Assembly (NCBI RefSeq): GCF_003334255.1
Contig: NZ_QOWU01000013.1
DNA from: Escherichia coli
GTDB lineage: Bacteria > Pseudomonadota > Gammaproteobacteria > Enterobacterales > Enterobacteriaceae
DNA: 64,000 bases
Strand: one strand, 5' to 3'
The notes beneath the pieces were generated by a model. That model was not told the origin of the DNA. It searched no databases and saw only the letters and a list, made by a program, of their open reading frames with translations. The position numbers were made by a program, and so were the translations under genes. This document shows, piece by piece, positions 31,570 to 50,610 of this stretch. The first letter of the stretch is position 1; each line of letters opens with the position of its first letter.

Positions 31570-33225
31570 TTAAAATGTTTCCCAGTTCTCCTCGCTATCT
31601 GCCACGGCCATTTTACGCGGCGCAGCTGGCGTCACGGTTTTTACCACAGCCGATGTTTCACGCTGCTGTTGCTGAATCCGGAACACTGCCACTGCTTCGG
31701 TCAGGCGACTGGCCTGCTCTTCCAGCGCGGCGGCGGCAGCGGCAGACTCTTCCACCAGCGCGGCGTTCTGTTGAGTTACCCGGTCCATCTCAGCAACCGC
31801 TAAGCCAACCTGATCGATACCACGGCTCTGCTCATCAGAAGCAGAAGCAATTTCGCCCATAATGTCCGTCACGCGGGTCACGGCGCTGACAATCTCCGCC
31901 ATTGTTTCCCCGGCGCTTTCGACCAGCGTAGAGCCAACATCCACTTTCCCCACCGAGTCTTCAATCAGGCTTTTAATTTCACGAGCCGCCTGGGCGCTGC
32001 GCTGGGCCAGATTACGCACTTCTCCCGCGACCACCGCAAAACCGCGCCCTTGCTCACCCGCACGCGCAGCCTCAACCGCCGCGTTCAAAGCCAGAATATT
32101 GGTCTGGAAGGCAATGCCGTCAATTACGCTGATAATATCGGCGATTTTCTGCGAACTGGTGGAGATATCGCGCATAGTCTGCACCACGTTATCTACCACT
32201 TTACCGCCGCGTTGCGCCGTTTCAGAAGCACTTAACGCCAGATGGCTGGCCTGGCGCGCATTTTCGGCGTTCTGCTTCACCGTTGCGGTCAGTTGCTCCA
32301 TGCTGGCTGCCGTCTCTTCCAGCGAAGCGGCCTGTTGCTCGGTGCGCGAAGAGAGATCGTTATTGCCGGTGGCGATTTCGCTGGCACCGCTATAGATGGC
32401 ATTGGCCCCGTTGCGCACATCACCGACGGTACGCATCAGCTCTCCCTGCATATGGCGCAAACTCTCTGCCAGTTGCCCCATCTCATTAGAGCCATCCACC
32501 TCAATCGGTTTCACCAGATCGCCGCCTGCAATATGACGAATGCTGTCAATCAGGCGATTCATTGGCGCTACCAGCGAGGCTTTAATACCGAACCAGACGG
32601 CGAAGATGACCGCCAGTACGACGATCATCACGCCCACCAGAATCCACATCGCCTGGCTGTAGGAGGCATTGTTATCGCTGACGGCGATATCATGGAGCCG
32701 ATCGTTTTGCTCCATGTAAGCCACATACTGCTTCTCGAAACCGTCCTGATATCCCTGGGTCGGCTGATCAAAGAACTCGTTGATTTTGCCTGCACCTAAC
32801 AGTTGGATCAGCTCCGCCAGCGCATTGTGATAAATATCGTAATTACGTTTGATCTCTGCCGCTGCGGCGGTGCTCTGACGCGGGTCACGCGGCAACGCTT
32901 CGTAATCCGCCCAGTTTTTTTCCGCCTGTTTCAGCGAAATACTGGCACTCTCCATCAGCTCAGCAACGGTTGAACCGCTACCAATATTATTCTGATCCAT
33001 CATGTAGCGGATACCCGCGCGGTTGAGGGTGTTACGCGTCTGCAACAACGCGACCCAGCTGCCATTCAGCGTGGATTGCTGCTGGCGAATGGTTTGTAAA
33101 ACAGTGAAATTTTCTTTGTCATTCTTTAAGGCATTAAAGAACAGACCGCCTGATGTCAGTTGTAAAAGGCCAAAAACGGCCAAAACCAGCAGTAAGCTGG
33201 TCACAATTTTGATACGTTTTAACAT
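31570..33225 (-). CDS. tsr: serine chemoreceptor Tsr (MCP I)
   Basis: 551-aa [26 protein letters not shown]... ending in the NWETF pentapeptide. Confidence 0.97.
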
Positions 33226-33255
33226 GGTTTCTCTTTCCTGTGGACCGATGCAAGA

Positions 33256-33282
33256 TTTTCGGCCTGGAAAGGAAAAACTTTA
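33256..33282 (-). promoter_or_regulatory. sigma-28 (FliA) promoter of tsr
   Basis: The minus strand reads TAAAGTTT, 11 nt, then GCCGAAAA, against the consensus TAAAGTTT-N11-GCCGATAA. It lies about 30-55 nt upstream of the tsr ATG. Confidence 0.75.
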
Positions 33283-33418
33283 TGAATATCCCGCGGAGAT
33301 TACGCCGAGTGAATTTTATTCACACTCTGAATTTAAAAAGCCATTATTTACATAAATTATTCACAATATAAATATGTGATATGAATCACATATTTATCGT
33401 CACTTAAACGACGCCTTT

Positions 33419-33446
33419 GCCGCTCAACCGCAAAACTGACCGCTTA
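33419..33446 (+). promoter_or_regulatory. direct repeats resembling the BtsR (YehT, LytTR) site of the btsT promoter
   Basis: gCCGCTCA at 33419 and ACCGCTTA at 33439 are 20 bp apart and about 160 nt upstream of btsT. They resemble the ACC[G/T]CT[C/T]A direct repeat as I recall it. Confidence 0.45.
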
Positions 33447-33602
33447 CATCCCTAAAATAACCACTCAGTTATTTACCTTACTTTACGCGCGCGTAACTCT
33501 GGCAACATCACTACAGGATAGCGGTCAATTTACCTCCTCAAACGCAACGCAAACCTAGAACGGCTTCGGCCAACTATTAATCAATACATGCCAGGTTTTA
33601 CT

Positions 33603-35753
33603 ATGGATACTAAAAAGATATTCAAGCACATACCCTGGGTGATTCTCGGAATCATCGGTGCATTCTGCCTCGCGGTAGTTGCATTACGTCGGGGGGAGCA
33701 CATCAGCGCCCTGTGGATCGTGGTCGCCTCTGTATCGGTGTATCTGGTGGCGTATCGCTACTACAGTCTGTACATCGCCCAGAAGGTGATGAAACTCGAC
33801 CCCACGCGCGCGACGCCTGCGGTTATTAACAACGACGGTCTGAACTACGTTCCGACCAACCGTTACGTGTTGTTTGGTCACCACTTCGCCGCTATCGCCG
33901 GTGCTGGTCCGCTGGTGGGTCCGGTTCTCGCCGCGCAGATGGGCTACCTGCCTGGCACGCTGTGGCTGCTGGCGGGGGTCGTGCTGGCCGGTGCGGTTCA
34001 GGACTTTATGGTGCTGTTTATCTCCTCTCGCCGTAATGGCGCATCTCTTGGTGAGATGATCAAAGAAGAGATGGGACCAGTACCGGGGACTATCGCGCTG
34101 TTTGGCTGTTTCTTAATCATGATCATCATCCTCGCCGTCCTGGCGCTGATTGTGGTTAAAGCCCTGGCCGAAAGTCCGTGGGGTGTCTTCACCGTTTGCT
34201 CAACCGTACCGATTGCGCTGTTTATGGGTATCTACATGCGCTTTATTCGTCCGGGGCGTGTGGGTGAAGTCTCTGTCATTGGTATCGTGCTGCTGGTTGC
34301 CTCTATCTACTTCGGTGGCGTGATTGCTCACGATCCGTACTGGGGTCCGGCACTGACCTTTAAAGACACCACCATTACCTTCGCGCTGATTGGCTATGCG
34401 TTTGTTTCCGCACTGCTGCCAGTGTGGCTGATCCTCGCACCGCGCGACTATCTGGCAACCTTCCTGAAAATCGGCGTTATCGTCGGCCTGGCGCTGGGTA
34501 TCGTGGTGCTGAACCCGGAACTGAAAATGCCTGCCATGACCCAGTACATTGACGGTACTGGCCCGCTGTGGAAAGGCGCTCTGTTCCCGTTCCTGTTCAT
34601 CACCATCGCCTGTGGTGCGGTATCTGGCTTCCACGCGCTGATCTCTTCCGGTACGACGCCAAAACTGCTGGCTAATGAAACCGACGCGCGTTTCATCGGC
34701 TACGGCGCAATGCTGATGGAGTCCTTCGTGGCGATTATGGCGCTGGTTGCTGCGTCCATCATCGAACCGGGTCTTTACTTCGCGATGAACACCCCGCCTG
34801 CTGGCCTTGGCATCACCATGCCTAACCTGCATGAAATGGGTGGCGAGAACGCGCCGATCATCATGGCGCAGCTGAAAGACGTTACCGCACACGCGGCAGC
34901 GACCGTCAGCTCCTGGGGCTTCGTGATTTCGCCAGGGCAGATCCTGCAAACCGCGAAAGACATTGGTGAGCCTTCTGTCCTGAACCGTGCAGGTGGCGCG
35001 CCGACGCTGGCGGTAGGTATCGCGCACGTGTTCCACAAAGTGCTGCCGATGGCTGACATGGGCTTCTGGTATCACTTCGGTATTCTGTTCGAAGCCCTGT
35101 TCATCCTGACCGCGCTGGATGCGGGTACCCGTTCTGGCCGCTTTATGCTGCAAGACCTGCTGGGTAACTTTATCCCGTTCCTGAAAAAAACCGACTCTCT
35201 GGTTGCCGGTATCATTGGTACTGCGGGCTGTGTGGGTCTGTGGGGCTACCTGCTGTATCAGGGCGTGGTCGATCCGCTGGGCGGCGTTAAGAGCCTGTGG
35301 CCGCTGTTCGGTATCTCCAACCAGATGCTGGCAGCCGTAGCGCTGGTACTGGGCACCGTTGTGCTGATTAAGATGAAGCGCACCCAATACATCTGGGTAA
35401 CTGTTGTTCCGGCTGTATGGCTGCTTATCTGCACCACCTGGGCGCTGGGCCTGAAACTGTTCAGCACCAACCCGCAGATGGAAGGCTTCTTCTACATGGC
35501 AAGCCAGTACAAAGAGAAGATTGCTAACGGTACTGACCTGACGGCGCAGCAGATTGCCAATATGAACCACATCGTTGTGAACAACTACACCAACGCAGGT
35601 CTGAGTATTCTGTTCCTGATTGTGGTGTACAGCATCATCTTCTACGGTTTCAAAACCTGGCTTGCGGTGCGTAACAGCGACAAACGTACTGACAAAGAAA
35701 CACCGTACGTTCCAATCCCGGAAGGCGGCGTGAAGATCTCTTCGCACCACTAA
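33603..35753 (+). CDS. btsT: CstA-family pyruvate:H+ symporter BtsT (YjiY)
   Basis: ORF frame trimmed to MDTKKIFKHIPWVILGIIGAF (716 aa), a polytopic membrane protein. Confidence 0.95.
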   Translation: MDTKKIFKHIPWVILGIIGAFCLAVVALRRGEHISALWIVVASVSVYLVAYRYYSLYIAQKVMKLDPTRATPAVINNDGLNYVPTNRYVLFGHHFAAIAGAGPLVGPVLAAQMGYLPGTLWLLAGVVLAGAVQDFMVLFISSRRNGASLGEMIKEEMGPVPGTIALFGCFLIMIIILAVLALIVVKALAESPWGVFTVCSTVPIALFMGIYMRFIRPGRVGEVSVIGIVLLVASIYFGGVIAHDPYWGPALTFKDTTITFALIGYAFVSALLPVWLILAPRDYLATFLKIGVIVGLALGIVVLNPELKMPAMTQYIDGTGPLWKGALFPFLFITIACGAVSGFHALISSGTTPKLLANETDARFIGYGAMLMESFVAIMALVAASIIEPGLYFAMNTPPAGLGITMPNLHEMGGENAPIIMAQLKDVTAHAAATVSSWGFVISPGQILQTAKDIGEPSVLNRAGGAPTLAVGIAHVFHKVLPMADMGFWYHFGILFEALFILTALDAGTRSGRFMLQDLLGNFIPFLKKTDSLVAGIIGTAGCVGLWGYLLYQGVVDPLGGVKSLWPLFGISNQMLAAVALVLGTVVLIKMKRTQYIWVTVVPAVWLLICTTWALGLKLFSTNPQMEGFFYMASQYKEKIANGTDLTAQQIANMNHIVVNNYTNAGLSILFLIVVYSIIFYGFKTWLAVRNSDKRTDKETPYVPIPEGGVKISSHH

Positions 35754-35761
35754 CCGTGTTT

Positions 35762-35789
35762 AGCCCCGCTTCGGCGGGGCTTTGTTCTT
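35762..35789 (+). terminator. hairpin plus T tract after btsT
   Basis: agccccgc, ttcg loop, gcggggct, followed by ttgttctt. Confidence 0.7.
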
Positions 35790-35802
35790 ATCAGAGTGAA
35801 CT

Positions 35803-36006
35803 ATGTTTGGTAACTTAGGACAGGCAAAAAAATATCTCGGCCAGGCGGCGAAGATGTTGATTGGCATTCCAGACTACGACAACTACGTCGAGCATATGAA
35901 GACCAACCATCCCGACAAGCCGTACATGAGCTATGAAGAATTCTTCCGCGAACGCCAGAACGCGCGCTACGGCGGCGATGGTAAAGGCGGTATGCGCTGT
36001 TGTTAA
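35803..36006 (+). CDS. yjiX: YbdD/YjiX-family small protein (DUF466), CstA-associated
   Basis: 67-aa [36 protein letters not shown].... Confidence 0.85.
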
Positions 36007-36016
36007 TGGAGAGAGC

Positions 36017-36973
36017 ATGAACCCGATTGCAGTTACCCTACTCACCGGTTTTTTAGGCGCAGGAAAAACCACCCTGCTGCGCCATATTCTTAACGAACAG
36101 CACGGCTACAAGATTGCCGTGATTGAAAACGAATTCGGCGAAGTCTCTGTTGATGATCAACTGATTGGCGACCGCGCCACGCAGATCAAAACGCTGACCA
36201 ACGGCTGCATCTGCTGTTCGCGCTCCAACGAGCTGGAGGACGCGCTACTCGACCTGCTGGACAATCTCGACAAGGGCAATATTCAGTTCGACCGTCTGGT
36301 CATTGAATGCACCGGTATGGCCGATCCCGGCCCGATTATTCAGACCTTTTTCTCCCATGAGATTTTATGCCAGCGCTACCTGCTGGATGGCGTGATTGCG
36401 CTGGTGGATGCGGTACATGCCGATGAGCAGATGAACCAGTTCACCATCGCCCAGTCCCAGGTGGGCTACGCTGACCGTATTCTGCTGACTAAAACCGACG
36501 TCGCAGGCGAAGTAGAGAAACTGCGTGAACGCCTGGCGCGCATCAACGCCCGCGCACCGGTCTACACCGTCACCCACGGTGACATCGACCTGGGCCTGTT
36601 GTTCAACACCAACGGTTTTATGCTGGAAGAAAACGTCGTCAGCACCAAACCGCGTTTCCACTTTATCGCGGATAAACAAAACGATATTTCGTCGATTGTG
36701 GTGGAACTGGATTACCCGGTAGATATCAGCGAAGTTTCCCGCGTGATGGAAAACCTGCTGCTGGAATCGGCAGATAAACTGCTGCGTTACAAAGGGATGC
36801 TGTGGATTGACGGCGAACCTAACCGCCTGCTGTTCCAGGGCGTCCAGCGCCTCTACAGCGCCGACTGGGACAGGCCATGGGGCGATGAAAAACCGCATAG
36901 CACCATGGTGTTTATCGGGATTCAGCTGCCGGAGGATAAGATTCGGGCGGCGTTTGCTGGGTTGAGGAAGTAA
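36017..36973 (+). CDS. yjiA: COG0523 metal-chaperone GTPase YjiA
   Basis: ORF frame trimmed to MNPIAVTLLTGFLGAGKTTLLRHIL (318 aa). It has a CICC motif, and GGAGAG precedes the ATG. Confidence 0.95.
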   Translation: MNPIAVTLLTGFLGAGKTTLLRHILNEQHGYKIAVIENEFGEVSVDDQLIGDRATQIKTLTNGCICCSRSNELEDALLDLLDNLDKGNIQFDRLVIECTGMADPGPIIQTFFSHEILCQRYLLDGVIALVDAVHADEQMNQFTIAQSQVGYADRILLTKTDVAGEVEKLRERLARINARAPVYTVTHGDIDLGLLFNTNGFMLEENVVSTKPRFHFIADKQNDISSIVVELDYPVDISEVSRVMENLLLESADKLLRYKGMLWIDGEPNRLLFQGVQRLYSADWDRPWGDEKPHSTMVFIGIQLPEDKIRAAFAGLRK

Positions 36974-36991
36974 TTTTGGATGATGGATGAT

Positions 36992-37009
36992 GGCCGCCAT
37001 GTGGCGGCC
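36992..37009. terminator. GC hairpin between convergent yjiA and brnA
   Basis: ggccgc, catgtg loop, gcggcc, followed by tgaattatttttt on the plus strand. Confidence 0.5.
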
Positions 37010-37013
37010 TGAA

Positions 37014-37316
37014 TTATTTTTTGTTCTGATCGCGCAGCATCGCTTCACGTAAAATTGCGTTCAGGCGAGTTTGATAGCCTTTACCAGGTCGCTTCAGCCA
37101 TTCCATCACATCAGCATCAATACGCACCGAAGCCTGGGTTTTCAATGGCCGATAAAACTTACCGCGTTCTGCGTTAGACCATTGCTCATCGCTGGAAGGT
37201 GGGATATCGCTGTAATCAATCTCTTCGTCGGATTTATTCGCCAGCGCCTTCAATTCGGCCTCATGCTGCACATCGAGTGTAGAGGAGGTCCCTCGTTTAT
37301 GTTTAACCATGCTCAT
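37014..37316 (-). CDS. brnA: BrnA-family antitoxin
   Basis: 100 aa from the internal ATG. MSMVKHKRG...EIDYSDIPPSSDEQWSNAERGKFYRPLKTQASVRIDADVMEWLKRPGKGYQTRLNAILREAM matches the BrnA/DUF4415 signature. The start overlaps the brnT stop by 14 nt. Confidence 0.85.
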   Translation of the reverse strand: MSMVKHKRGTSSTLDVQHEAELKALANKSDEEIDYSDIPPSSDEQWSNAERGKFYRPLKTQASVRIDADVMEWLKRPGKGYQTRLNAILREAMLRDQNKK

Positions 37317-37599
37317 AGCGACTCCTCTCTTTACGATCTGCTTTTCGTGCACTGATGATTCGAATAATTTCATTTCCGCTTTCGAAACGGATGGTATGCG
37401 CAACCAGAATAACCACGATACCGTGAACCACGCCGATAGTCTGCCAGCGATACTCACCGTTTTCTATGCGATCTTGCTGTGACAAATGTTGTGGATCATC
37501 AAACACCAACACCGCATCTTCAAAGCGGATGCCATGTTTCACCCGATTACTTTTGGCCTTGTTTGCATCCCATTCAAACTCCATTGGCATAGTTGCCAT
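37303..37599 (-). CDS. brnT: BrnT-family (DUF497) ribonuclease toxin
   Basis: MEFEWDANKAKSNRVKHGIRFEDAVLVFDDP...IIRIISARKADRKERSRY matches the DUF497 signature. The start is one of the ATGs at 37599, 37590 or 37584. The TTG at 37617 in the ORF track is unlikely. Confidence 0.85.
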   Translation of the reverse strand: MATMPMEFEWDANKAKSNRVKHGIRFEDAVLVFDDPQHLSQQDRIENGEYRWQTIGVVHGIVVILVAHTIRFESGNEIIRIISARKADRKERSRYEHG

Positions 37600-37605
37600 C
37601 CCTAA

Positions 37606-37647
37606 TTGTATATACAAAAATGTATCTACAATTATTCTGCAATTATA
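37606..37647 (-). promoter_or_regulatory. candidate brnTA promoter/operator
   Basis: A perfect 12-bp palindrome TTGTATATACAA (37606-37617) lies just upstream of the brnT ATG. A perfect TATAAT -10 sits on the minus strand at 37642-37647. Confidence 0.4.
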
Positions 37648-37786
37648 GCGTTGATGTTGGAAATAGCATCACGTTTTGGATAATCAACCATGAAATTGAC
37701 AATGAGTAAGTTGGACTTGATTCATCCAATAGAATTTCTCGCCTGACATGGCACACTAAACACCTCGCTGTCGTTAAGGGATTACC

Positions 37787-38953
37787 GTGAAAAACTATAA
37801 AGTTATTACCCCGCTTTTTCCTACCTATGCACAGGTTAAAGCTATGATGAAAGCCGTCTCAGGCTATTCCCTGAAAGCGGTACGCAATATGATTACCGCC
37901 ATTCACGAGCAAACCGGTACGCCGCAAAAACCCGTTGACTGGTCGGAACCCGACCTGTGGATCAGCGAGCGCTTAACGGGTGAAGATGCCGACATCGCCC
38001 GTCGTATTTGGGATACCGATAATCACATCTTGAACCCGCGCCACAGCTACGGCTGCTACTTATTCCTCAACTATCCCCAGTTTGATCTGATGGAAAGCAC
38101 ACCAGATGATACCTGGCAGCCCACCTCGCACGGGCAAAAATTCCTGCAAGATGACGAAAAAACGCTGCGTTCACTGGACGATCAGGAAGGCATTCTGCAA
38201 CTTCTTGAACTATTAGCTGGCCGCGAAATGTCGCGCCGCGCCGATTTATTGCCGGAATGGCAGGCCTTTTTGCATCAGCATTCGAAATTCGCGTCTGCAA
38301 GTTCAGTGAAAAGCACGCTCTACTCCCGTCTCTATAACCTTATCGACCGTGACATGGTTAACCGTGAAGGCATGAGCTATCGCATCACCGATACCGGGCG
38401 CGCCTGACTTGGAAAAGCGTTACCTGCACGAAAAAGCGATCCGCGTAAAGAGCTGTTGGAAGCGGTAAAACGCTATAACGAACAGCAAAAAGAGCTGCTG
38501 CGCGAACAAATCAGCACGATGAACCCGTACAAATTTGAACAACTGGTCGGTCAATTACTGGAAGCAATGGGCTACGAGCAGGTCGAAGTGACCAAAGCCT
38601 CTGGCGATAAAGGCGTGGACGTGATTGGTCAGGTGCAGGTCGGCATCACCACCATTACAGAAGTGGTGCAGGTCAAAAGAATGCAGAACACTATCACTCG
38701 CCCGTATATCGACCAGTTGCGCGGGGCGTTGCCTTACCACAAAGCCATTCGCGGTACGCTCATCACCACCGGGAAATTTGCGGCGAAATGTGCAGAAGCG
38801 GCGCTCTTTCCGGGTGCCGCGCCCATTACGCTTATCGACGGCGATCGTTTACTGGAACTGTTAATCGAAAATAACGTCGGCATTCGCCGCAGCAATGCAG
38901 TGGAATTGCTGGATGTAGATTTGCAGTTGTTTGATGAGCTGGAGATGGATTAA
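37787..38953 (+). pseudogene. Mrr-type (type IV-like) restriction endonuclease gene interrupted by one in-frame TGA (38405-38407)
   Basis: ORFs 37787..38407 and 38456..38953 are in the same frame, and only the TGA separates them. The upstream part ends in an Mrr_N-like winged helix (ILQLLELLAGREMSRRADLL...GMSYRITDTGRA). The downstream part is an Mrr_cat PD-(D/E)xK domain (SGDKGVDVIG...VVQVKR). Confidence 0.7.
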
Positions 38954-39016
38954 AGGGCGAAATCCGCCGCCTCAACCATTACAATAGCGACCCAATTTAT
39001 CTGAACAGAGTTCATC

Positions 39017-40625
<1,609 letters not shown>

Positions 40626-40636
<11 letters not shown>

Positions 40637-42017
40637 TGGCTTCAAGTTACCTCTAGGATGGAATTGTAAAAAACTGGTTGATTGTACAAAGGAGGGAAAT
40701 ATCTCTTATGGTATTGTTCAACCAGGTCAGCATCAAGAAGATGGCATTGGTATTATTCGTGTAAATAATATACAAAATGGAAATATTTACATAGACGATG
40801 TTCTGAAGGTTTCTCATGAAATAGAAAGTAAATTTGCCAAAACTAGGTTAGAAGGAGGAGAAGTACTTTTAACACTAGTGGGTTCCACTGGAATTAGCGC
40901 CATTACAACTAAAGCACTACAGGGATGGAATGTTGCTCGTGCCGTAGCCGTAATTAAGCCATGCGATGAAATAAGTGCAGAGTGGATACATATTTGCCTC
41001 CAATCACCTTTTACAAAATATTTTTTGGATTCCAGAGCTAATACTACTGTTCAGAAAACTCTCAATCTCAAAGACGTGAAAGAAATTCCATTACCAATTC
41101 CTCCACATGAGGAAAGAGTAAGTCTTGAGAAAATTTACTTCAATTTTGAGAATAGAATAAACTTAAATATAAAAATTAATAAAATCCTAGAAGAAATGTC
41201 ACAAAACCTGTTCAAATCCTGGTTTGTAGATTTTGATCCGGTGGTTGATAACGCTCTGGATGCAGGAAACCCAATTCCGGAAGCCCTGCAATCTCGCGCC
41301 GAATTGCGTCAAAAAGTACGTAATAGTGCAGATTTTAAACCGCTTCCGGCGGAAATCCGCTCGCTTTTCCCAAGTGAATTTGAAGAAACGGAGTTGGGTT
41401 GGATGCCAAAGGGATGGCAAATTAAATCATTAGATCATATTGCTAATTTCCAGAATGGTTTGGCTTTACAAAAATTTAGGCCGAAGAATATGGAGGATGA
41501 TTATTTACCTGTATTAAAAATAGCAGATCTCCGAGCAGGACAAATAACTAATGACGAACGAGCAAGAACTGATATTTCTGATAGTTGTAAGGTGTATGAC
41601 GGCGATATGATTTTCTCATGGTCGGGGACTTTGATGATCGATATTTGGACTGGTGGGAATGCTGCATTAAATCAGCATTTATATAAGGTCACATCAAAAA
41701 AATACCCACAATCTTTTTATTTTATGTGGACAATACAGCATCTTTCAAGATTTCAACATATTGCAGAGGCAAAAGCGGTAACAATGGGGCACATCAAAAA
41801 AGGAGATTTAAGTAACTCTTTCTGTCTAATTCCTACTTCATCGTTGATTACTAAATATGATAATATCGTTGGAGGATATTTAGCGAAGATTAAAAATCAA
41901 AGATTGTTAAATAACCAAATGACCGCCCTACGCGACACCCTGCTCCCGAAACTCATCTCCGGCGAGCTATCCCTGGACGATATTCCGGATCTCAACACCG
42001 ATACAGAAGCTGCATAA
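40626..42017 (+). CDS. hsdS: type I R-M specificity subunit HsdS
   Basis: 463-aa ORF overlapping hsdM by 11 nt. It has a conserved central helix (LFKSWFVDFDPV) and C-terminal helix (LRDTLLPKLISGEL) flanking two AT-rich variable domains. Confidence 0.9.
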
Positions 42018-42025
42018 CGCATTTT

Positions 42026-42050
42026 GCCCCTGTAAAATCAGGGGCTTTCT
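42026..42050 (+). terminator. terminator-like hairpin between hsdS and hsdR
   Basis: gcccctg, taaaat loop, caggggc, followed by tttct. A second inverted repeat pairs ctggtaag (42049-42056) with cttaccag (42079-42086). Confidence 0.5.
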
Positions 42051-42111
42051 GGTAAGGTTTTCTACTGATACGGGAATGCTTACCAGAAATTAGCCAGGGT
42101 TGGAGCGCGAT

Positions 42112-45100
42112 ATGAGTCTCTCTTTCAGTGAAGCAAAATTAGAACAAGCGATCATTGAACTGTTACAGGATCAGGGATATCAACACCTGATCGGCGATAA
42201 TGTCCCACGTTCGACTCTCGATCAGGTCATTATCGAAGACGATCTCCGTCATTATTTAGCGGCACGCTACCAGCCTGATGGCATTACTGAAGAAGAGATT
42301 CAGCGACTGATCAAACAGTTCACCACGCTTCCGGCCTCCGATCTTTATGAAAGCAACAAAACATTTTGTCGCTGGCTGGCAAATGGTTTTCTGTTCAAAC
42401 GCGACGATCGGCAAAAAAAAGATCTCTATATTGAATTGCTCGACACCCGGCATCTACCTGCCGCACTGCGCCAGATATTTGACGCTGAAGATGTCCCGTT
42501 GCAACAGGCGGCGGAACTCCCGCCCTCCTATATTAATCCGCCGCTTAACCGGATTAAGATTGTTAACCAGCTTAAAATCTCCGGTAAAGATAATCAGACT
42601 CGTATTCCTGACGGCATTCTCTATATCAACGGTCTGCCACTGGTCGTCTTTGAATTTAAAAGCGCGGTGCGCGAGCAGGAAGCCAATATAGGCGATGCCT
42701 GGAAGCAGCTCTGCAAACGCTATCGCCGGGATATTCCGCAACTGTTTATCTACAACGCGCTCTGCATTATTAGCGATGGTGTAAATAACCGGATGGGCAA
42801 CCTGTTTGCGCCCTATGAATACTTTTACTCATGGCGCAAAGTCACCGGTAATGAAAACCGTGAACAGGACGGAATTCCATCATTGCACTCAATGATTCAG
42901 GGACTGTTTCATCCGGTACGTCTGTTGGATGTGATTAAAAACTTTATCTGCTTCCCGGATAAAGCCAAGCACGAAGTAAAAATTTGCTGCCGATATCCGC
43001 AGTACTATGCCGCCCGCAAACTCTATTACAGCATCAAGCAAGCGCGTAAACCTTTCGGTAGCGGTAAAGGCGGTACCTACTTTGGCGCAACGGGCTGCGG
43101 AAAAAGCTACACCATGCAATTTTTAACCCGCCTGTTAATGAAAAGCGTGGAGTTTGCCAGCCCGACCATTGTTTTGATCACCGACCGTACCGATCTGGAC
43201 GATCAGCTTTCTGCGCAAATGTGCAACGCCAAAAATTACATTGGCGATGACACCATCGTTCCCGTTACCAGCCGTGAAGATTTGCGTAATCAACTGGCGG
43301 GACGCAATAGTGGCGGTGTATTCCTGACAACGATCCATAAATTCACCGAAGACACCGAACTCCTTTCTGAACGCAGCAATATCATTTGCATCTCGGACGA
43401 AGCACATCGCAGTCAGGTTAACCTCGACCAGAAAGTCATCGTCGATAAAGAAAGCGGAAAAGTGCGCAAAACTTATGGCTTTGCGAAATACCTGCACGAT
43501 TCACTGCCAAACGCCACCTATGTTGGCTTTACCGGAACTCCGATTGACGCAACACTCGATGTCTTCGGTGAGGTGATCGACAGTTACACCATGACCGAAT
43601 CCGTTCAGGATGAAATCACTGTACGCATCGTGTACGAAGGCCGTGCGGCTAAAGTGATCCTGGACTCCAGCAAACTGGAAGAAGTCGAAAAGTATTACGA
43701 AGAGTGCGCAAACGCAGGCACCAATGAGTGGCAAATCGACGAAAGCAAAAAAGCCACCGCAACCATGAATGCGGTACTGGGTGATGAAGATCGGTTAAAA
43801 GCCCTCGCGGAAGATTTTGCCAAACATTATGAAAAACGCGTAGCCGAAGGTTCCACCGTAAAAGGCAAAGCCATGTTTGTTTGTGCCAGCCGTGAAATTG
43901 CCTGGGATTTCTACCGCCAGCTTAAAGTTATTCGCCCTGCCTGGTTTGAAGTGAAGCAAGCCCCCGATGGCGTCGTCCTGACGGAACAGGAGCAGAAAGA
44001 GTTACCGCCTTCTGAAATGGTGAAGATGGTCATGACGCGCGGTAAAGATGACGACGAGGCGCTTTATGATTTACTGGGCACAAAAGAATATCGCAAAGAG
44101 CTGGATAAGCAGTTCAAAAACGCTAAATCGAATTTCAAAATTGCCATTGTTGTTGATATGTGGCTGACCGGTTTTGATGTTCCTGAACTGGATACCATCT
44201 ATATTGATAAGCCCTTACAAAAACATAACCTTATCCAGACTATTTCTCGCGTTAACCGTAAACTGGAAGGCAAAAGCAAAGGGTTAGTAGTGGACTACAT
44301 CGGCATTAAGAGTCAGATGAACCAGGCACTGGCAATGTATTCCCGCATTGATGCCACCAACTTTGAAGATATTCAGCAATCGGTAATAGAAGTTAAAAAC
44401 CATCTCGATTTGTTGGGGCAAGTATTTTATGAATTCGACAGTCGGGATTATTTTAGTGGTGAGCCACAAGCGCAATTATCCTGCCTCAACCGCGCGGCGG
44501 AATTTGTTCTGCGCACTCAGAAAGTTGAACGTCGTTTTATGGGACTGGTTAAACGCATGAAAGCCGCCTACGACGTCTGCTGCGGCAGTGAAGCACTATC
44601 ACAGACAGAACGTGATCATATTCACTATTATCTTGCTGTTCGTTCAATTGTTTTCAAACTGACGAAAGGTGACGCACCGGATGTCACCCAGATGAATGCA
44701 CGCGTTCGTGAAATGATTGCAGAAGCGCTAAAAGCTGATGGCGTAGAAGAAATTTATTTTCTTGGCGATAAAAAAGCGGAATCCATCGATATTTTTGACG
44801 AAGATTATCTGGCGCGAATTAACAAGATCAAACTTCCGGCAACGAAGATCCAGTTATTACAAAAATTACTGGAAAAAGCGATCAGCGACTTCAAGAAAGT
44901 GAACCAGTTGCAAGGGATTAACTTCACCCGCCGCTTCCAGGCGATTATAGATCGTTATAATGAGCGGCGAGAAGATGATGTACTCAACGGTGAAGAATTC
45001 GATACATTCAGTCAGGAAATGACCGATATTATCTATGATATTAAAACCGAAATGGGCACATGGGCCGATTTAGGTATTGATATTGAAGAAAAAGCGTTTT

Positions 45101-45375
45101 TCGACATTCTTGCTCATATGCGCGATAAATATCAGTTCACCTATGACGATGAAAAAATGCTGTCACTGGCAAAAGAGATGAAAAGCGTGGTTGACAACAC
45201 ATCGAAATATCCTGACTGGAGTAAACGCGATGATATTAAAGCGAAACTGAAAGTTGAACTTATTCTGCTTCTACACAAGCATAAGTTCCCGCCAGTAGCA
45301 AATGATGATGTTTATATGGGTGTGCTGGCACAGGCAGAGAATTTTAAAGAACATCATATGAGTGCTTTAAATTAA
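42112..45375 (+). CDS. hsdR: type I restriction enzyme R subunit HsdR
   Basis: 1087 aa from the ATG at 42112, preceded by GGAG. It has a PD-(D/E)xK nuclease motif (DGILYINGLPLVVFEFK), a helicase Walker A (GATGCGKS) and a DEAH box (SDEAHRSQ). Confidence 0.95.
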   Translation: MSLSFSEAKLEQAIIELLQDQGYQHLIGDNVPRSTLDQVIIEDDLRHYLAARYQPDGITEEEIQRLIKQFTTLPASDLYESNKTFCRWLANGFLFKRDDRQKKDLYIELLDTRHLPAALRQIFDAEDVPLQQAAELPPSYINPPLNRIKIVNQLKISGKDNQTRIPDGILYINGLPLVVFEFKSAVREQEANIGDAWKQLCKRYRRDIPQLFIYNALCIISDGVNNRMGNLFAPYEYFYSWRKVTGNENREQDGIPSLHSMIQGLFHPVRLLDVIKNFICFPDKAKHEVKICCRYPQYYAARKLYYSIKQARKPFGSGKGGTYFGATGCGKSYTMQFLTRLLMKSVEFASPTIVLITDRTDLDDQLSAQMCNAKNYIGDDTIVPVTSREDLRNQLAGRNSGGVFLTTIHKFTEDTELLSERSNIICISDEAHRSQVNLDQKVIVDKESGKVRKTYGFAKYLHDSLPNATYVGFTGTPIDATLDVFGEVIDSYTMTESVQDEITVRIVYEGRAAKVILDSSKLEEVEKYYEECANAGTNEWQIDESKKATATMNAVLGDEDRLKALAEDFAKHYEKRVAEGSTVKGKAMFVCASREIAWDFYRQLKVIRPAWFEVKQAPDGVVLTEQEQKELPPSEMVKMVMTRGKDDDEALYDLLGTKEYRKELDKQFKNAKSNFKIAIVVDMWLTGFDVPELDTIYIDKPLQKHNLIQTISRVNRKLEGKSKGLVVDYIGIKSQMNQALAMYSRIDATNFEDIQQSVIEVKNHLDLLGQVFYEFDSRDYFSGEPQAQLSCLNRAAEFVLRTQKVERRFMGLVKRMKAAYDVCCGSEALSQTERDHIHYYLAVRSIVFKLTKGDAPDVTQMNARVREMIAEALKADGVEEIYFLGDKKAESIDIFDEDYLARINKIKLPATKIQLLQKLLEKAISDFKKVNQLQGINFTRRFQAIIDRYNERREDDVLNGEEFDTFSQEMTDIIYDIKTEMGTWADLGIDIEEKAFFDILAHMRDKYQFTYDDEKMLSLAKEMKSVVDNTSKYPDWSKRDDIKAKLKVELILLLHKHKFPPVANDDVYMGVLAQAENFKEHHMSALN

Positions 45376-45382
45376 TTATGAA

Positions 45383-45408
45383 GGCCGGATACACTTTGTT
45401 ATCCGGCC
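45383..45408 (+). terminator. hairpin just after hsdR (REP-like arms)
   Basis: ggccggata pairs with tatccggcc across an 8-nt loop, 8 nt after the hsdR stop. Confidence 0.45.
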
Positions 45409-45495
45409 ATTCTGAATTAACGTTAATTTCTCTTCCAGATCTTTCCAGTAACGCTTTTATTATTTTCTATTTTTAGCTGGACTTCCCCCCATATT

Positions 45496-45515
45496 TACTG
45501 ATGATATATCCAGGT
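45496..45515. promoter_or_regulatory. LexA (SOS) box upstream of symE
   Basis: TACTGATGATATATCCAGGT fits CTG-N10-CAG with an AT-rich centre, about 75 nt upstream of the symE ATG. symE is known to be SOS-inducible. Confidence 0.65.
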
Positions 45516-45519
45516 ATTT

Positions 45520-45596
45520 AGCGCGGTGCGGATGTGCGCCAACACACCCGCACCGCTCATCACAATCACTATTTATGGAGAATAGTAATCATGACT
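45520..45596 (-). ncRNA. symR: SymR antisense RNA (type I antitoxin of SymE)
   Basis: By analogy with K-12, the start lies 6 nt inside symE. The minus strand has TTCTGG, 17 nt, TAGAAT, 7 nt, then AGTCAT... starting at 45596. The long GC hairpin gcggtgcgg...ccgcaccgc (45523-45556) would form its 3' end. Ends are approximate. Confidence 0.55.
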
Positions 45597-45929
45597 GACA
45601 CGCATTCTATTGCACAACCGTTCGAACCAGAAGTCTCTCCTGCAAATAACCGTCAATTAACCGTGAGCTATGCGAGCCGCTACCCGGATTACAGCCGTAT
45701 TCCCGCCATCACCCTGAAAGGTCAGTGGCTGGAAGCCGCCGGTTTTGCCACCGGCACTGTGGTAGATGTCAAAGTGATGGAAGGCTGTATTGTCCTCACC
45801 GCCCAACCACCCGCCGCCGAAGAGGGCGAACTGATGCAGTCGCTGCGCCAGGTGTGCAAACTGTCGGCGCGTAAACAAAGGCAGGTGCAGGATTTTATTG
45901 GGGTGATTAGTAGCAAAACGCCACGCTAA
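45591..45929 (+). CDS. symE: SOS-induced toxin-like endoribonuclease SymE (AbrB/SpoVT fold)
   Basis: ORF frame trimmed to [52 protein letters not shown]... (112 aa). Confidence 0.9.
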
Positions 45930-45938
45930 GTTTCTCTC

Positions 45939-45959
45939 CCCTTCCCCATACGGGAAGGG
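45939..45959. terminator. hairpin between convergent symE and yjiS
   Basis: cccttccc pairs with gggaaggg across a 5-nt loop. Confidence 0.5.
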
Positions 45960-45970
45960 AAATTGCCCCC

Positions 45971-46135
45971 TCACTCCACATCCTCCCTGCGTAACCCGAT
46001 ATCCCTCAACCGCTCATCACTCATCTGCTGTAACACCCGCCGGGCCTGCATTTGCCGCCGCCAACGCCTCACCGCCTGCCAGAGTTGCACGAAGCCGATA
46101 AACGGCGCGTTGGCTTTGTTTTCGTGAAATTCCAT
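45971..46135 (-). CDS. yjiS: DUF1127 small protein YjiS
   Basis: Absent from the ORF track because it is under 60 aa. Hand translation gives MEFHENKANAPFIGFVQLWQAVRRWRRQMQARRVLQQMSDERLRDIGLRREDVE (54 aa). A GAGGAGG Shine-Dalgarno lies 6 nt upstream of the ATG (46133-46135). Confidence 0.8.
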   Translation of the reverse strand: MEFHENKANAPFIGFVQLWQAVRRWRRQMQARRVLQQMSDERLRDIGLRREDVE

Positions 46136-46311
46136 CTGCTGCCTCCTCATCTTTCAGAGGCTTCATCATCCGCCTTCTGGCAGTTCACAATACAGATGCA
46201 AATATTAGTTTTATTTAACATACAGACAGGTTAAAACAGCATCTGCATCCGGTTTTTTAGCCTCATCTGTACCGGTTTTTCTCTCTGTATGGTCCAAATA
46301 AGGAATACAGC

Positions 46312-47724
46312 ATGACGCGTTATCAACATCTGGCAACTCTGCTTGCCGAGCGGATTGAGCAAGGGCTGTATCGTCACGGGGAGAAATTGCCGTCGGTGCG
46401 CAGCTTAAGTCAGGAGCACGGCGTCAGCATCAGCACCGTGCAGCAGGCGTATCAGACGCTGGAGACGATGAAGCTCATCACTCCGCAGCCGCGTTCGGGG
46501 TATTTTGTCGCACAACGTAAAGCCCAGCCGCCAGTGCCGCCGATGACGCGTCCGGTGCAGCGCCCGGTGGAAATTACCCAGTGGGATCAGGTGCTGGATA
46601 TGCTGGAGGCGCATAGCGACAGTTCCATTGTTCCGTTAAGCAAAAGCACGCCGGATGTCGAAACGCCCAGCCTGAAACCGCTCTGGCGGGAGCTAAGCCG
46701 GGTGGTGCAGCATAATCTGCAAACCGTTCTCGGTTATGACTTGTTAGCCGGTCAGCGAGTGTTGCGGGAGCAGATTGCCCGCCTGATGCTCGACAGTGGC
46801 TCGGTGGTCACCGCCGATGACATCATCATCACCAGCGGCTGCCATAACTCGATGTCGCTGGCGTTAATGGCGGTGTGTAAACCGGGCGATATTGTCGCGG
46901 TCGAATCCCCCTGTTATTACGGTTCGATGCAGATGCTGCGTGGCATGGGCGTGAAAGTGATTGAAATCCCAACCGATCCAGAAACAGGCATCAGCGTTGA
47001 AGCGCTGGAACTGGCGCTGGAACAGTGGCCGATTAAAGGCATCATTCTGGTGCCAAACTGTAATAATCCGCTGGGATTTATTATGCCGGACGCGCGCAAA
47101 CGGGCCGTTCTCTCTCTCGCTCAGCGTCATGATATTGTGATTTTTGAAGATGATGTCTACGGCGAACTGGCAACGGAGTATCCGCGCCCGCGGACCATTC
47201 ATTCCTGGGATATCGACGGGCGAGTGCTGTTGTGCAGCTCGTTCAGTAAAAGCATTGCACCTGGCCTGCGCGTGGGTTGGGTCGCACCGGGGCGTTATCA
47301 CGATAAACTGATGCATATGAAATACGCCATCAGCAGCTTTAATGTGCCGTCCACGCAAATGGCGGCGGCAACGTTTGTGCTGGAAGGTCACTATCATCGC
47401 CATATCCGGCGGATGCGGCAGACTTATCAGCGCAATCTGGCACTTTATACCTGCTGGATACGGGAATATTTTCCCTGCGAAATCTGTATTACGCGCCCGA
47501 AAGGCGGATTTTTACTGTGGATAGAATTGCCTGAACAGGTCGATATGGTCTGCGTCGCGCGGCAGCTGTGCCGCATGAAAATCCAGGTGGCGGCAGGCTC
47601 GATTTTCTCGGCTTCCGGCAAATACCGTAATTGTCTGCGCATCAACTGCGCTTTGCCGCTCAGCGAAACCTATCGCGAAGCACTGAAGCAAATTGGCGAA
47701 GCCGTGTATCGGGCAATGGAATGA
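46312..47724 (+). CDS. yjiR: MocR-family regulator (GntR HTH fused to a PLP aminotransferase-like domain) YjiR
   Basis: 470-aa ORF with the N-terminal GntR HTH LPSVRSLSQEHGVSISTVQQAY and a fold-type I aminotransferase-like C-terminal domain containing SFSKSIAPGLRVG. Confidence 0.9.
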   Translation: MTRYQHLATLLAERIEQGLYRHGEKLPSVRSLSQEHGVSISTVQQAYQTLETMKLITPQPRSGYFVAQRKAQPPVPPMTRPVQRPVEITQWDQVLDMLEAHSDSSIVPLSKSTPDVETPSLKPLWRELSRVVQHNLQTVLGYDLLAGQRVLREQIARLMLDSGSVVTADDIIITSGCHNSMSLALMAVCKPGDIVAVESPCYYGSMQMLRGMGVKVIEIPTDPETGISVEALELALEQWPIKGIILVPNCNNPLGFIMPDARKRAVLSLAQRHDIVIFEDDVYGELATEYPRPRTIHSWDIDGRVLLCSSFSKSIAPGLRVGWVAPGRYHDKLMHMKYAISSFNVPSTQMAAATFVLEGHYHRHIRRMRQTYQRNLALYTCWIREYFPCEICITRPKGGFLLWIELPEQVDMVCVARQLCRMKIQVAAGSIFSASGKYRNCLRINCALPLSETYREALKQIGEAVYRAME

Positions 47725-47841
47725 ATTCGAAATAGTGGCGAGCCCCCTGATTTCCTCTCACGAATAGCGTGTGACTCGTTTTATCTTTGCAGGGTCATCT
47801 CCACGTTCCAGCATGGCTTAGGCAAAATGCGCTTTGTTCAT

Positions 47842-47939
47842 GCCGGATGCCATGTGAACGCCTTACCAAGTCTACAAAATCTTTAAAGTTCAATATAGTG
47901 AATGGGTTATGTAGACCTGATAAGCGTAGCACATCAGGC
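47842..47939. repeat. degenerate REP pair
   Basis: gccggatgccatgtgaacgccttaccaagtctac is paired with the inverted copy gtagacctgataagcgtagcacatcaggc. Confidence 0.7.
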
Positions 47940-47966
47940 TGCTTTGCGTTTGTCATCAGTCTCTGA

Positions 47967-48911
47967 TTAGTACTCGATCCATGGATCGCGCTTGCTTTCA
48001 GGCAAGGGTTGCTCTAATGCCTGCATTTGCTCTGCCGAAAGTCCGGTAATCTTTTGTATCCATTCAGGATCTGCCCCATTCTGCAACAACAATCGGAGGA
48101 GGTGCTGTTCCCCTTCTTCTTTCCCTTTTTCCATCCCCAACAGCCATCCATCATTATAAATTCGCTCTGCAATCGTCATTATTCGCTCCCTGTGTTGTGG
48201 CATTCGACGGGTAAGTTCGCTGATAAACTTCTTAAAACGCGCTTCATCGCCAGTCAGTAAAATGTAATTTAACAGCGCGGTTATCTGGCTGTCATTAGCA
48301 CACTCTGTAACCAGTAATAGTACCAGTTGATCGATAAGCCCCATCAGATCGCGCTGGCGAATATGCTTTTGGATCAACTCCAACAGGGCGACTCTGCGAT
48401 GCTGCACAATCTCGTCGTCTGGCACGACAGTGACATCCACCAGCGGGAACGCTGCGGTATAAAGCTTCCGTGCGGTGGTCGGGTCAGCAAATTCGTCCAG
48501 CCAGCACAGGGACCAGGGATAAGGACTACGGCTACCGTGATAAAACAGCATCGGGATGACCAGCGGTAGCGGCCGGCGTTTATCATGCTCGATATGGCGC
48601 TGCATCACCGCCATGGAATATCGCATCAGGCGAAAGGCCATATGGATATCCTCGCGGCTCTGATGTTCAATCACCACATAAATATAGCCATCGCCTTCGC
48701 GGGTCTTTACCGACCACAGAATATCGGAATGTAGCGCCCGCAATTTTTCATCGACAAAGCTGGCGGATTCCAGTTTTAAGCTGTCGAGATCGCACAGTTC
48801 ACGTAAATCTTTGGGTAAGTGGATCTCCATAAAATCCCGCGCGGTGTCAGGGTGCGTGAGAAAGGATTTAAATAATGCGTCATGCGGCGTGCTGGTTGTG
48901 AAGTTTGTCAT
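47967..48911 (-). CDS. rpnD: Rpn-family recombination-promoting nuclease (PD-(D/E)xK, transposase_31-like), apparently intact
   Basis: 314-aa [36 protein letters not shown]...IEHQS.... It sits at the yjiP/yjiQ position next to mdtM. Confidence 0.85.
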
Positions 48912-49377
48912 GGCGATCCGTCACCTGTAGATAAGATGGCCCGACTGTAGCGACTAACAAAACCATTCTCACCCGGCAATTTCCCATTCCCCGAGGTGCT
49001 TTCCAGGCTATTTTTGTTCCTCTGCAAACGATACATTTTTCCGGAAACAGGCTCGCGTTTTACATTTCCTGTACCCGGCAGATATTCCCCTTTCCACCGC
49101 ACTCTTTTGATTAACCGCAAATTTTAATTACACTTAAGGTGTATATTTTCTATGCAACCCATCAATTCAAGAGGTGTAATGTGCTGATGACTATTTGTAA
49201 TCGTTATACATTCTGACCTGGAGTCAGAAGGTATTTCTCTGTCTGTGTGTTCACAGGCAGTGTGGTTGATTACATGAAATTCAGTACATTTGTCCTTCTC
49301 GCCTGCCTTTCGTCATTACCGACGGTATTGAATTTCGTTTTCCCCATTGGGGTTCTCCGGACAAGGAGTTGTTTGTT

Positions 49378-50610
49378 ATGCCACGTTTTTTTGCCCGCCA
49401 TGCCGCCACGCTGTTTTTCCCGATGGCGTTGATTTTGTATGACTTTGCTGCGTATCTGTCGACGGACCTGATCCAGCCAGGGATCATTAATGTGGTCCGT
49501 GATTTTAATGCCGATGTCAGTCTGGCCCCTGCTGCCGTCAGTCTCTATCTTGCTGGCGGTATGGCGTTACAGTGGCTGCTGGGGCCGCTTTCCGACAGAA
49601 TTGGCCGCAGGCCGGTGCTGATTACCGGGGCGTTAATTTTTACCCTTGCCTGCGCCGCGACAATGTTCACCACGTCAATGACACAATTTCTTATCGCGCG
49701 TGCAATTCAGGGCACCAGTATCTGTTTTATTGCCACCGTTGGTTATGTCACGGTGCAGGAGGCGTTCGGACAGACAAAAGGGATCAAGTTGATGGCGATT
49801 ATCACCTCCATCGTACTGATTGCGCCGATTATCGGCCCGCTTTCCGGCGCAGCTCTGATGCACTTTGTGCACTGGAAAGTCCTTTTTGCCATCATTGCGG
49901 TTATGGGTTTTATCTCATTTGTTGGCTTACTGCTGGCGATGCCAGAGACGGTGAAGCGCGGCGCGGTTCCATTTAGCGCCAAAAGCGTCTTGCGCGATTT
50001 TCGTAATGTCTTTTGCAATCGGCTGTTCCTCTTTGGCGCAGCAACCATCTCTTTAAGCTATATCCCCATGATGAGTTGGGTGGCTGTCTCGCCGGTGATC
50101 CTGATCGACGCGGGCGGCTTAACAACTTCGCAGTTCGCCTGGACACAGGTTCCGGTGTTCGGCGCGGTGATTGTCGCGAATGCCATCGTGGCGCGTTTCG
50201 TTAAAGATCCGACCGAACCGCGGTTTATGTGGCGTGCCGTACCCCTTCAACTGGTTGGCCTCGCGCTGTTGATTATCGGCAATCTGCTGTCACCGCACGT
50301 CTGGCTGTGGTCGGTGCTGGGCACCAGTCTGTATGCTTTCGGGATTGGTTTGATTTTCCCGACCTTATTCCGCTTTACGCTGTTTTCCAATAACTTACCG
50401 AAAGGGACCGTCTCCGCATCGCTGAATATGGTGATCCTGATGGTGATGTCTGTCTCGGTCGAAATCGGCCGCTGGCTGTGGTTTAACGGCGGTCGCTTGC
50501 CGTTTCATCTATTAGCCGTCGTGGCGGGCGTTATCGTCGTTTTCACCCTGGCGGGATTGCTCAATCGCGTGCGCCAACATCAGGCTGCCGAGCTGGCGGA
50601 GGAGCGGTGA
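49378..50610 (+). CDS. mdtM: MFS multidrug efflux pump MdtM
   Basis: ORF frame trimmed to [30 protein letters not shown] (410 aa). Confidence 0.92.

Follow-up and report, generated by a model that had tools for sequence, protein, structure and literature searches.

A probable type ID haplotype of the immigration control region between yjiA and yjiR in Escherichia coli

The 64,000-nucleotide stretch of Escherichia coli DNA analysed here (contig NZ_QOWU01000013.1 of assembly GCF_003334255.1, hereafter the window) contains a 9338-bp interval, 36974-46311, bounded by the end of yjiA at 36973 and the start of yjiR at 46312. With a probability of about 0.9, this interval represents the 'type ID haplotype' of the immigration control region of E. 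coli (ICR; defence hotspot 36), in which an 8.5-kb cassette occupies the slot held by mrr-hsdRMS in strain K-12 and in which the modules act independently of one another. The cassette (36974-45458) comprises the toxin-antitoxin genes brnTA, an Mrr-like gene and an hsdM-hsdS-hsdR restriction-modification (R-M) system assigned to the StySBLI family, set between yjiA and the symE/symR-yjiS-yjiR segment, and alternative cassettes are likely to be swapped between strains by homologous recombination in these shared flanks.

How such a locus would work can be pieced together from its parts. Judging from the enzyme family and its intact motifs, a complex HsdM2S would methylate a bipartite target, most likely AGCA(N6)TGA, and HsdR2M2S would translocate and cut unmodified incoming DNA. 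The Mrr-like modification-dependent nuclease is dead in this haplotype through a nonsense codon, W207*, which is read directly from the DNA. As expected for their family, the RNase toxin BrnT and its partner BrnA would form an autonomous type II pair, and SymE would be kept off by LexA and the antisense RNA SymR, the elements being conserved here and their function being known from work on K-12.

Extent of the cassette and its anchors

The genes and sites of the interval, together with its two anchors, are as follows.

36017-36973, plus strand: yjiA, a GTPase gene and the left anchor of the ICR (CobW/CobW_C Pfam domains; RefSeq)
37014-37316, minus strand: brnA, antitoxin of a type II toxin-antitoxin pair (PF14384, 63.7 bits against a cut-off of 26.1; RefSeq WP_000063159.1)
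37303-37590, minus strand: brnT, ribonuclease toxin of the same pair (PF04365, 87.1 bits against a cut-off of 34.5; RefSeq WP_001299718.1)
37787-38953, plus strand: pseudogene of an Mrr-like type IV restriction endonuclease (Mrr_cat, E = 3e-30; PADLOC PDC-S02)
39017-40636, plus strand: hsdM, methyltransferase subunit assigned to type ID (HsdM_N and N6_Mtase)
40626-42017, plus strand: hsdS, specificity subunit with two target recognition domains (Methylase_S, two stretches)
42112-45375, plus strand: hsdR, restriction and translocase subunit assigned to type ID, 1087 aa (HSDR_N, SWI2_SNF2, T1R_D3-like and T1RH-like_C)
45496-45513, plus strand: LexA-box-like site TACTGATGATATATCCAG in the symE promoter, fitting TACTG-N10-CAG
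45520-45596, minus strand: symR, antisense RNA antitoxin (Rfam RF01809, 95.3 bits against a gathering score of 61, E = 3e-18, full length 1-77)
45591-45929, plus strand: symE, SOS-induced type I toxin and nucleoid-associated protein (PF08845, 75.4 bits against a cut-off of 29; RefSeq)
45971-46135, minus strand: yjiS, DUF1127 (PF06568; RefSeq)
46312-47724, plus strand: yjiR, the conserved right-hand neighbour (RefSeq; 95.6% identity to K-12)

An earlier note, made from the sequence alone, had listed the genes between yjiA and yjiR in this order, and each of its elements was recovered in its place from the map of open reading frames, a Pfam scan and the RefSeq annotation of identical DNA.

Local blastn of window positions 33000-50000 against the K-12 locus returned three blocks of homology. 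The first, 33000-36973 at 99.1% identity, stops exactly at the yjiA stop codon; the second, 45459-45908 at 92.9%, spans the symE promoter, symR and symE; and the third, 45966-50000 at 95.6%, spans yjiS, yjiR, rpn and mdtM. This leaves 36974-45458 as the segment not shared with K-12, and it takes the place of mrr-hsdR-hsdM-hsdS of that strain. The earlier note had taken the whole yjiA-yjiR interval as a wholesale cassette replacement at the ICR; a swap of cassette type is borne out, but its extent shrinks to this segment, the remainder being homologous to K-12. Its account of the K-12 interval (mrr, the EcoKI genes hsdR-hsdM-hsdS, symE, mcrBC, yjiV and yjiT) was accurate, as was its statement that mcrBC is absent here. 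Between symE and yjiS, K-12 carries about 7.6 kb (mcrB, mcrC, yjiV and yjiT) where the window has 57 bp, and the K-12 mcrBC block is a separate insertion, apart from the cassette exchange.

The interval contains no tRNA genes, there are no direct or inverted repeats at its borders, and no integrase or transposase gene is found among its genes annotated in RefSeq, which argues for allelic exchange via the conserved flanks, not site-specific integration. The left anchor is nearly universal, a yjiA match being found in 5383 of the 5426 complete E. coli genomes over which all distribution counts were made. A promoter and terminator scan was uninformative on operon structure, with sites no more numerous than in shuffled sequence. 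Directly after the hsdR stop codon lies a perfect 9-bp G+C-rich hairpin (GGCCGGATA...TATCCGGCC, 45383-45408), within cassette-specific DNA and shortly before the K-12 homology restarts at 45459; as it is not followed by a T-run, the terminator scan passed it over.

A type I system assigned to the StySBLI family

Families of type I R-M systems are defined by subunit exchange or complementation. The hsd genes of the window lie in the order M-S-R, as both the open reading frame map and RefSeq agree, against R-M-S in K-12; hsdM and hsdS overlap by 11 nt, and a gap of 94 nt separates hsdS from hsdR. HsdM begins with MAKAPTKKAKAKKGFEETLWDTANQLRG and keeps its DPCCGSAG and NPPF motifs, and HsdR keeps PD...EFK (the PD...ExK motif, residues 166-183), GCGKS (328-332) and the DEAH box (429-432); the HsdM start, the HsdR length and the DEAH box agree with what the earlier note had read. 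Since the catalytic motifs of both subunits are intact, the enzyme is probably active.

The earlier note had also maintained that these are not the EcoKI proteins, and this is correct. HsdM is 24% identical to EcoKI HsdM (type IA) and 26.5% to that of CFT073 (type IB), and HsdR matches EcoKI HsdR over just 219 residues (E = 7e-5), with essentially no similarity to type IA or IB; alleles of EcoKI or EcoAI are ruled out on these grounds. Both HsdM and HsdR are, in contrast, 99.3% identical to the proteins of Nissle 1917, JJ1886 and EC958 (WP_001029745.1 and WP_000058884.1). The EC958 system, EcoMII, has the operon order hsdM-hsdS-hsdR and an adjoining gene called 'Mrr'; its R subunit was reported to be 92% identical to StySBLI HsdR, and its knockout abolished N6-methyladenine (m6A) at AAC(N4)CTTT (Forde et al. 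2015, PMC4659465). The type ID family was founded on StySBLI (EcoSal Plus review 2025, PMC12707154), and the window hsdMSR genes are assigned to it on these identities.

Methylated adenines 6 bp apart have been described as a type ID trait, and both the EcoMII site (PMC4659465) and the type ID entries in Table 1 of the review (PMC12707154) fit it. StySBLI of Salmonella Blegdam, EcoR9I of E. coli and KpnAI of Klebsiella, the type ID prototypes, share an allelic ICR position with the window system, whose cassette lies next to yjiA, between that gene and symE. In Klebsiella pneumoniae ATCC 13883, HsdM is 94% and HsdR 91% identical to the window proteins. A survey of the ICRs of 9,040 enterobacterial genomes recorded type IA in 14%, IB in 11%, ID in 12% and no type IC, and described type IV enzymes, brnAT, symE/symR and rpn as further contents of the ICR (EcoSal Plus review 2025, PMC12707154).

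EcoMII of EC958 is the closest characterised relative. It occupies the same locus in the same order (yjiA, brnA, brnT, Mrr-like gene, hsdM, hsdS, hsdR, symE, yjiS, yjiR), and it differs from the window in two respects: the Mrr-like gene is intact in EC958 but a nonsense pseudogene in the window, and the HsdS proteins are only 37% identical overall, with other recognition domains. Because the recognition domains differ, the target of the window enzyme should not be AAC(N4)CTTT.

The HsdS allele and its predicted target

Low G+C in the recognition domains is usual for type I specificity genes. In a type I S subunit the two domains are arranged with rotational symmetry, so that a domain shifted from the second position to the first reads its target as the reverse complement; StySKI and EcoR124I reportedly offer a precedent for such a shifted domain (Thorpe 1997). 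In the window, hsdS has a G+C content of 0.34-0.41, the low values being limited to the recognition domains. Its product (RefSeq WP_000535334.1) is exactly the UniRef entry Q9ZEK7_ECOLX, 'HsdS protein', a deposit which from its numbering we take to date from about 1998-1999.

The HsdS of EcoBI from REL606, with the site TGA(N8)TGCT, served for comparison of the domains. Recognition domain 1 of the window protein (residues ~26-164) resembles EcoBI domain 2, the reader of TGCT, at 36% identity (E = 1e-23), and recognition domain 2 (~264-456) resembles EcoBI domain 1, the reader of TGA, at 26% (E = 7e-11). From the rotational symmetry and the likeness of domain 1 to EcoBI domain 2, the first half-site is predicted to be AGCA; the second is predicted to be a T-N-A triplet. 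EcoR9I, a type ID enzyme, has the site AGCA(N6)TGA (EcoSal Plus review 2025 Table 1, PMC12707154), and it is likely but unproven that the window HsdS is EcoR9I or an isospecific enzyme with this target. The earlier note had held that the system would not be novel if its gene set and HsdS were already catalogued in REBASE with a known site; given the identity to Q9ZEK7 and the fit to EcoR9I, this is probably the case. Literature searches on EcoR9I and Q9ZEK7 matched only the 2025 review, those on AGCANNNNNNTGA and its variants gave no match, and one for a Nissle 1917 methylome gave nothing useful.

In some genomes hsdS has one recognition domain in common with the window allele, either the first or the second, but not both; this is the classical reassortment of type I recognition domains.

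An inactivated Mrr-like nuclease

The Mrr_cat gene that had appeared split in the window is a single frame interrupted by one nonsense codon, W207 (TGG to TGA, 38405-38407). Compared with the intact 388-aa allele of Nissle 1917, there is no other frame-breaking difference, and RefSeq flags the gene as a pseudogene with an 'internal stop'. The two fragments cover positions 1-203 and 223-383 of the 390-position model PDLC04796, PADLOC candidate family PDC-S02, and the D...QxK motif is kept at 38606-38677. In the intact allele, a C-terminal Mrr_cat domain occupies residues 243-359 and a sub-threshold winged-helix signal (HTH_45, E = 0.0023) lies at about 150-208, so that W207* separates a putative DNA-binding part from the nuclease domain. 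Relative to EcoKMrr, the protein shows 31% identity, in the nuclease domain only. The gene is a pseudogene of a member of the Mrr-family type IV endonucleases, not a working enzyme.

An internal stop was present in all five carriers of the cassette haplotype whose annotation was read (ATCC 11775, S88, G1/2, NCTC9008 and EC21Z-063), and the Mrr-like gene is intact in FDAARGOS_1284 and TUM10008, each of which shares just one hsdS recognition domain with the window. It is conceivable that W207* was selected, the m6A pattern laid down by this particular HsdS being attacked by the neighbouring modification-dependent nuclease, in a built-in conflict between type I and type IV systems. This is unlikely. 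The idea draws on a single lineage and on two comparisons, and W207* is explained equally well as one neutral change passed on with the cassette.

Toxin-antitoxin pairs and the conserved framework

At the left end of the cassette, brnT and brnA overlap by 14 nt with the toxin gene first, and both genes are intact; with this arrangement, BrnT/BrnA can be classed as a type II toxin-antitoxin pair. PADLOC had no model matching BrnT, BrnA, SymE or YjiS.

To the right of the cassette, symR overlaps the 5' end of symE (symE start 45591), the symE DNA is 92.9% identical to that of K-12, and the LexA-box-like site is 1 base off the K-12 site and is conserved in CFT073 and Nissle. With a SymE_toxin domain, the cis-antisense SymR and an upstream LexA box, SymE/SymR can likewise be placed among type I toxin-antitoxin pairs. 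When the region upstream of symE was aligned among the window, K-12 (type IA), CFT073 (type IB) and Nissle (type ID), the symE promoter, LexA box and symR proved to be conserved in all four strains, and divergence started upstream, at the 3' end of the preceding hsd gene. Such conservation beside type IA, IB and ID systems alike indicates that SymE/SymR and yjiS form a framework outside the swapped cassette, contrary to the earlier note, which had counted SymE/SymR among the re-assorted parts.

Distribution and earlier descriptions

The whole window is 99.99% identical to strain G1/2. The interval 36974-46311 is 100% identical in G1/2, in the species type strain ATCC 11775, in S88, in MS7163 and in others, and at least 80% of it is covered in 789 of the 5426 genomes. 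Matches to the individual parts were counted in the same set.

brnTA: 2112 genomes
Mrr-like gene: 881 genomes
window hsdM: 952 genomes, 872 of them near full length
conserved parts of hsdS: 864-868 genomes
exact hsdS allele: 31 genomes

The Mrr-like gene and the window hsdM are thus carried by about 16% of complete E. coli genomes. In Nissle 1917 and in the sequence type 131 (ST131) strains JJ1886 and EC958, annotation shows the genes in this order too; there the Mrr-like gene is intact and hsdS differs.

The gene arrangement is not novel. It is found unchanged in the type strain and S88, it is annotated in EC958, JJ1886 and Nissle 1917, EcoMII and its 'Mrr' neighbour have been characterised, and the region is covered by the 2025 review. 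Replacement of cassettes at the ICR goes back in the literature to Murray, Raleigh and colleagues (cited in PMC12707154 and elsewhere), and the arrangement is already in the literature. A further paper, PMC12255300, treats gene-order classes generally, not the yjiA-yjiR locus.

The yjiA allele of the window (35933-36973) occurs at ≥99% identity in only 36 of the 5383 genomes with a yjiA match, and the cassette occurs at this level in 37. Anchor allele and cassette seem to travel together, which homologous recombination via the flanks would predict. The carriers came from humans, pigs, ducks, chickens, cattle and fish meat.

Alternative readings

The earlier note had raised the possibility that the four adjacent modules are functionally linked, so that BrnTA, the Mrr-like nuclease, the type I system and SymE/SymR would form one integrated, interdependent defence system. 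Adjacency itself speaks for this, as do the nearly one-to-one occurrence of the Mrr-like gene and the window hsd family within E. coli (881 versus 872-952 genomes) and the placement of symE immediately after the type I genes, whether of family IA, IB or ID. The idea nevertheless fails the test of co-occurrence across genomes and genera, and is very improbable. Within E. coli, brnTA is 2.4 times commoner than the Mrr-like/hsd pair (2112 genomes against 881 for the Mrr-like gene) and is kept beside yjiA even where the ICR is otherwise deleted down to IS1-mdtM, and in strain 13E0767 type ID hsdMSR sits at another chromosomal site without brnTA or the Mrr-like gene. Across enterobacterial species (one genome per species, 15 Mrr-like loci, flanks scored by tblastn), a type ID hsdMSR follows the Mrr-like gene in six loci (E. 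coli, E. albertii, K. grimontii, K. pneumoniae, Pluralibacter and Enterobacter nematophilus), six have an unrelated type I family (23-26% HsdM identity) nearby, and four have no type I system within 10 kb; these counts add up to 16 because one locus falls under two headings. Only five of the 15 loci have brnTA, and the Klebsiella loci lack both brnTA and symE. The modules also decay independently: the window has a dead Mrr-like gene beside intact hsdMSR, FDAARGOS_1284 has a brnT remnant with the rest intact, and hsdS is disrupted in NCTC9008 and truncated by IS1 in EC21Z-063. As for symE, it belongs to the framework common to type IA and IB haplotypes. Physical linkage in one cassette adequately explains why the Mrr-like gene and type ID hsdMSR travel together within E. 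coli.

Two other readings are less probable still. A recently integrated mobile element, either an integrative island or a transposon, could be suspected from the G+C content, which falls to 0.34-0.44 at the ends of the cassette and in hsdS, and from the IS1 copies that interrupt or shorten the region in some strains. The low G+C is, however, restricted to the recognition domains of hsdS, conserved anchor genes mark the breakpoints, three alternative cassettes occur in the same slot, and the interval has no annotated integrase or transposase; this origin is highly unlikely and was rejected on the lack of border repeats and tRNA genes. The least probable reading is that the hsd genes encode a type IC system like EcoR124I or EcoprrI. 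The M-S-R order, the 11-nt overlap of hsdM and hsdS and the 94-nt gap before a separate hsdR would suit it, and the best match of HsdR among solved structures is EcoR124I HsdR. Yet the EcoR124I matches are weak and partial (HsdR, 87.8 bits over residues 144-511; HsdM, E = 1.3e-38), and membership of type IC was rejected on them; the 99.3% identity to EcoMII, with its reported 92% R-subunit identity to StySBLI (PMC4659465), points to type ID instead, and the survey of 9,040 genomes had found no type IC at the ICR (PMC12707154).

The reading of the interval as a type ID haplotype with exchangeable, independent modules has points of its own that weigh against it. The type ID call joins the reported 92% identity between EcoMII and StySBLI to the 99.3% identity between EcoMII and the window proteins, so that the link to StySBLI is an indirect one. 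Activity of the type I enzyme is judged probable from intact motifs, and the breakpoints are the basis for inferring transfer by homologous recombination in the shared flanks. The equation of Q9ZEK7 with EcoR9I is likewise an inference, and a strict transfer from EcoBI would give TCA as the second half-site, not TGA; as the domain concerned is 26% identical, the specificity call is tentative.

Several observations on individual strains touch these modules. The 13E0767 locus (NZ_CP020107.1, 4104105-4110364) is a second chromosomal home of type ID hsdM-hsdS-hsdR, also without symE; it adjoins YagK/YfjJ-type island genes and lutBC, and the second recognition domain of its hsdS is 97.6% identical in DNA to the window allele. 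In STEC367, EF7-18-51 and EC21Z-063, IS1 lies at the edge of deletions that run from the Mrr-like gene, or from the middle of hsdS, through rpn and leave yjiA-brnA-brnT-IS1-mdtM. IS1-mediated deletion appears to be a recurrent way of emptying the ICR defence island.

Comparison with other immigration control regions and implications

The K-12 ICR shares the anchors yjiA, symE/symR, yjiS and yjiR with the window, and follows the same logic of a type IV enzyme, a type I R-M system and SymE/SymR. It differs in having a type IA system in the order R-M-S where the window has type ID in the order M-S-R, and the window has brnTA and lacks the mcrBC-yjiV-yjiT block. The ICR of CFT073, with the type IB system EcoCFTI and DUF262/GmrSD genes, uses the same slot and the same symE framework. 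Its HsdR is nevertheless of the EcoAI family (810 aa), its HsdM has the 26.5% identity given above, brnTA is missing, and the type IV partner is of the GmrSD type.

Further variable content lies nearby. An intact gene for a 314-aa Rpn-family recombination-promoting nuclease (47967-48911, minus strand; RefSeq WP_000181173.1) sits where K-12 has the rpnD pseudogene, and rpn is counted among the three toxin-antitoxin systems of the ICR (EcoSal Plus review 2025, PMC12707154). Downstream of yjiL in G1/2 (window 54550-64000 by colinearity) are a gene for a 697-aa pentapeptide-repeat protein and a 5.2-kb inverse autotransporter gene (iatD), which are not in the K-12 stretch examined.

Taken together, the locus is a textbook case of a defence island: its anchor genes are fixed, and alternative cassettes of type I, type IV and toxin-antitoxin genes replace one another between them. 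The haplotype is that of the E. coli type strain and of about one complete genome in six. The significance lies mainly in correct annotation: the Mrr-like type IV enzyme is inactive in this strain, and symE/symR is best treated as conserved framework, not as a variable cassette. Restriction of unmodified DNA at a type ID site, likely AGCA(N6)TGA, is probable in this strain and would be relevant to transformation and phage work.

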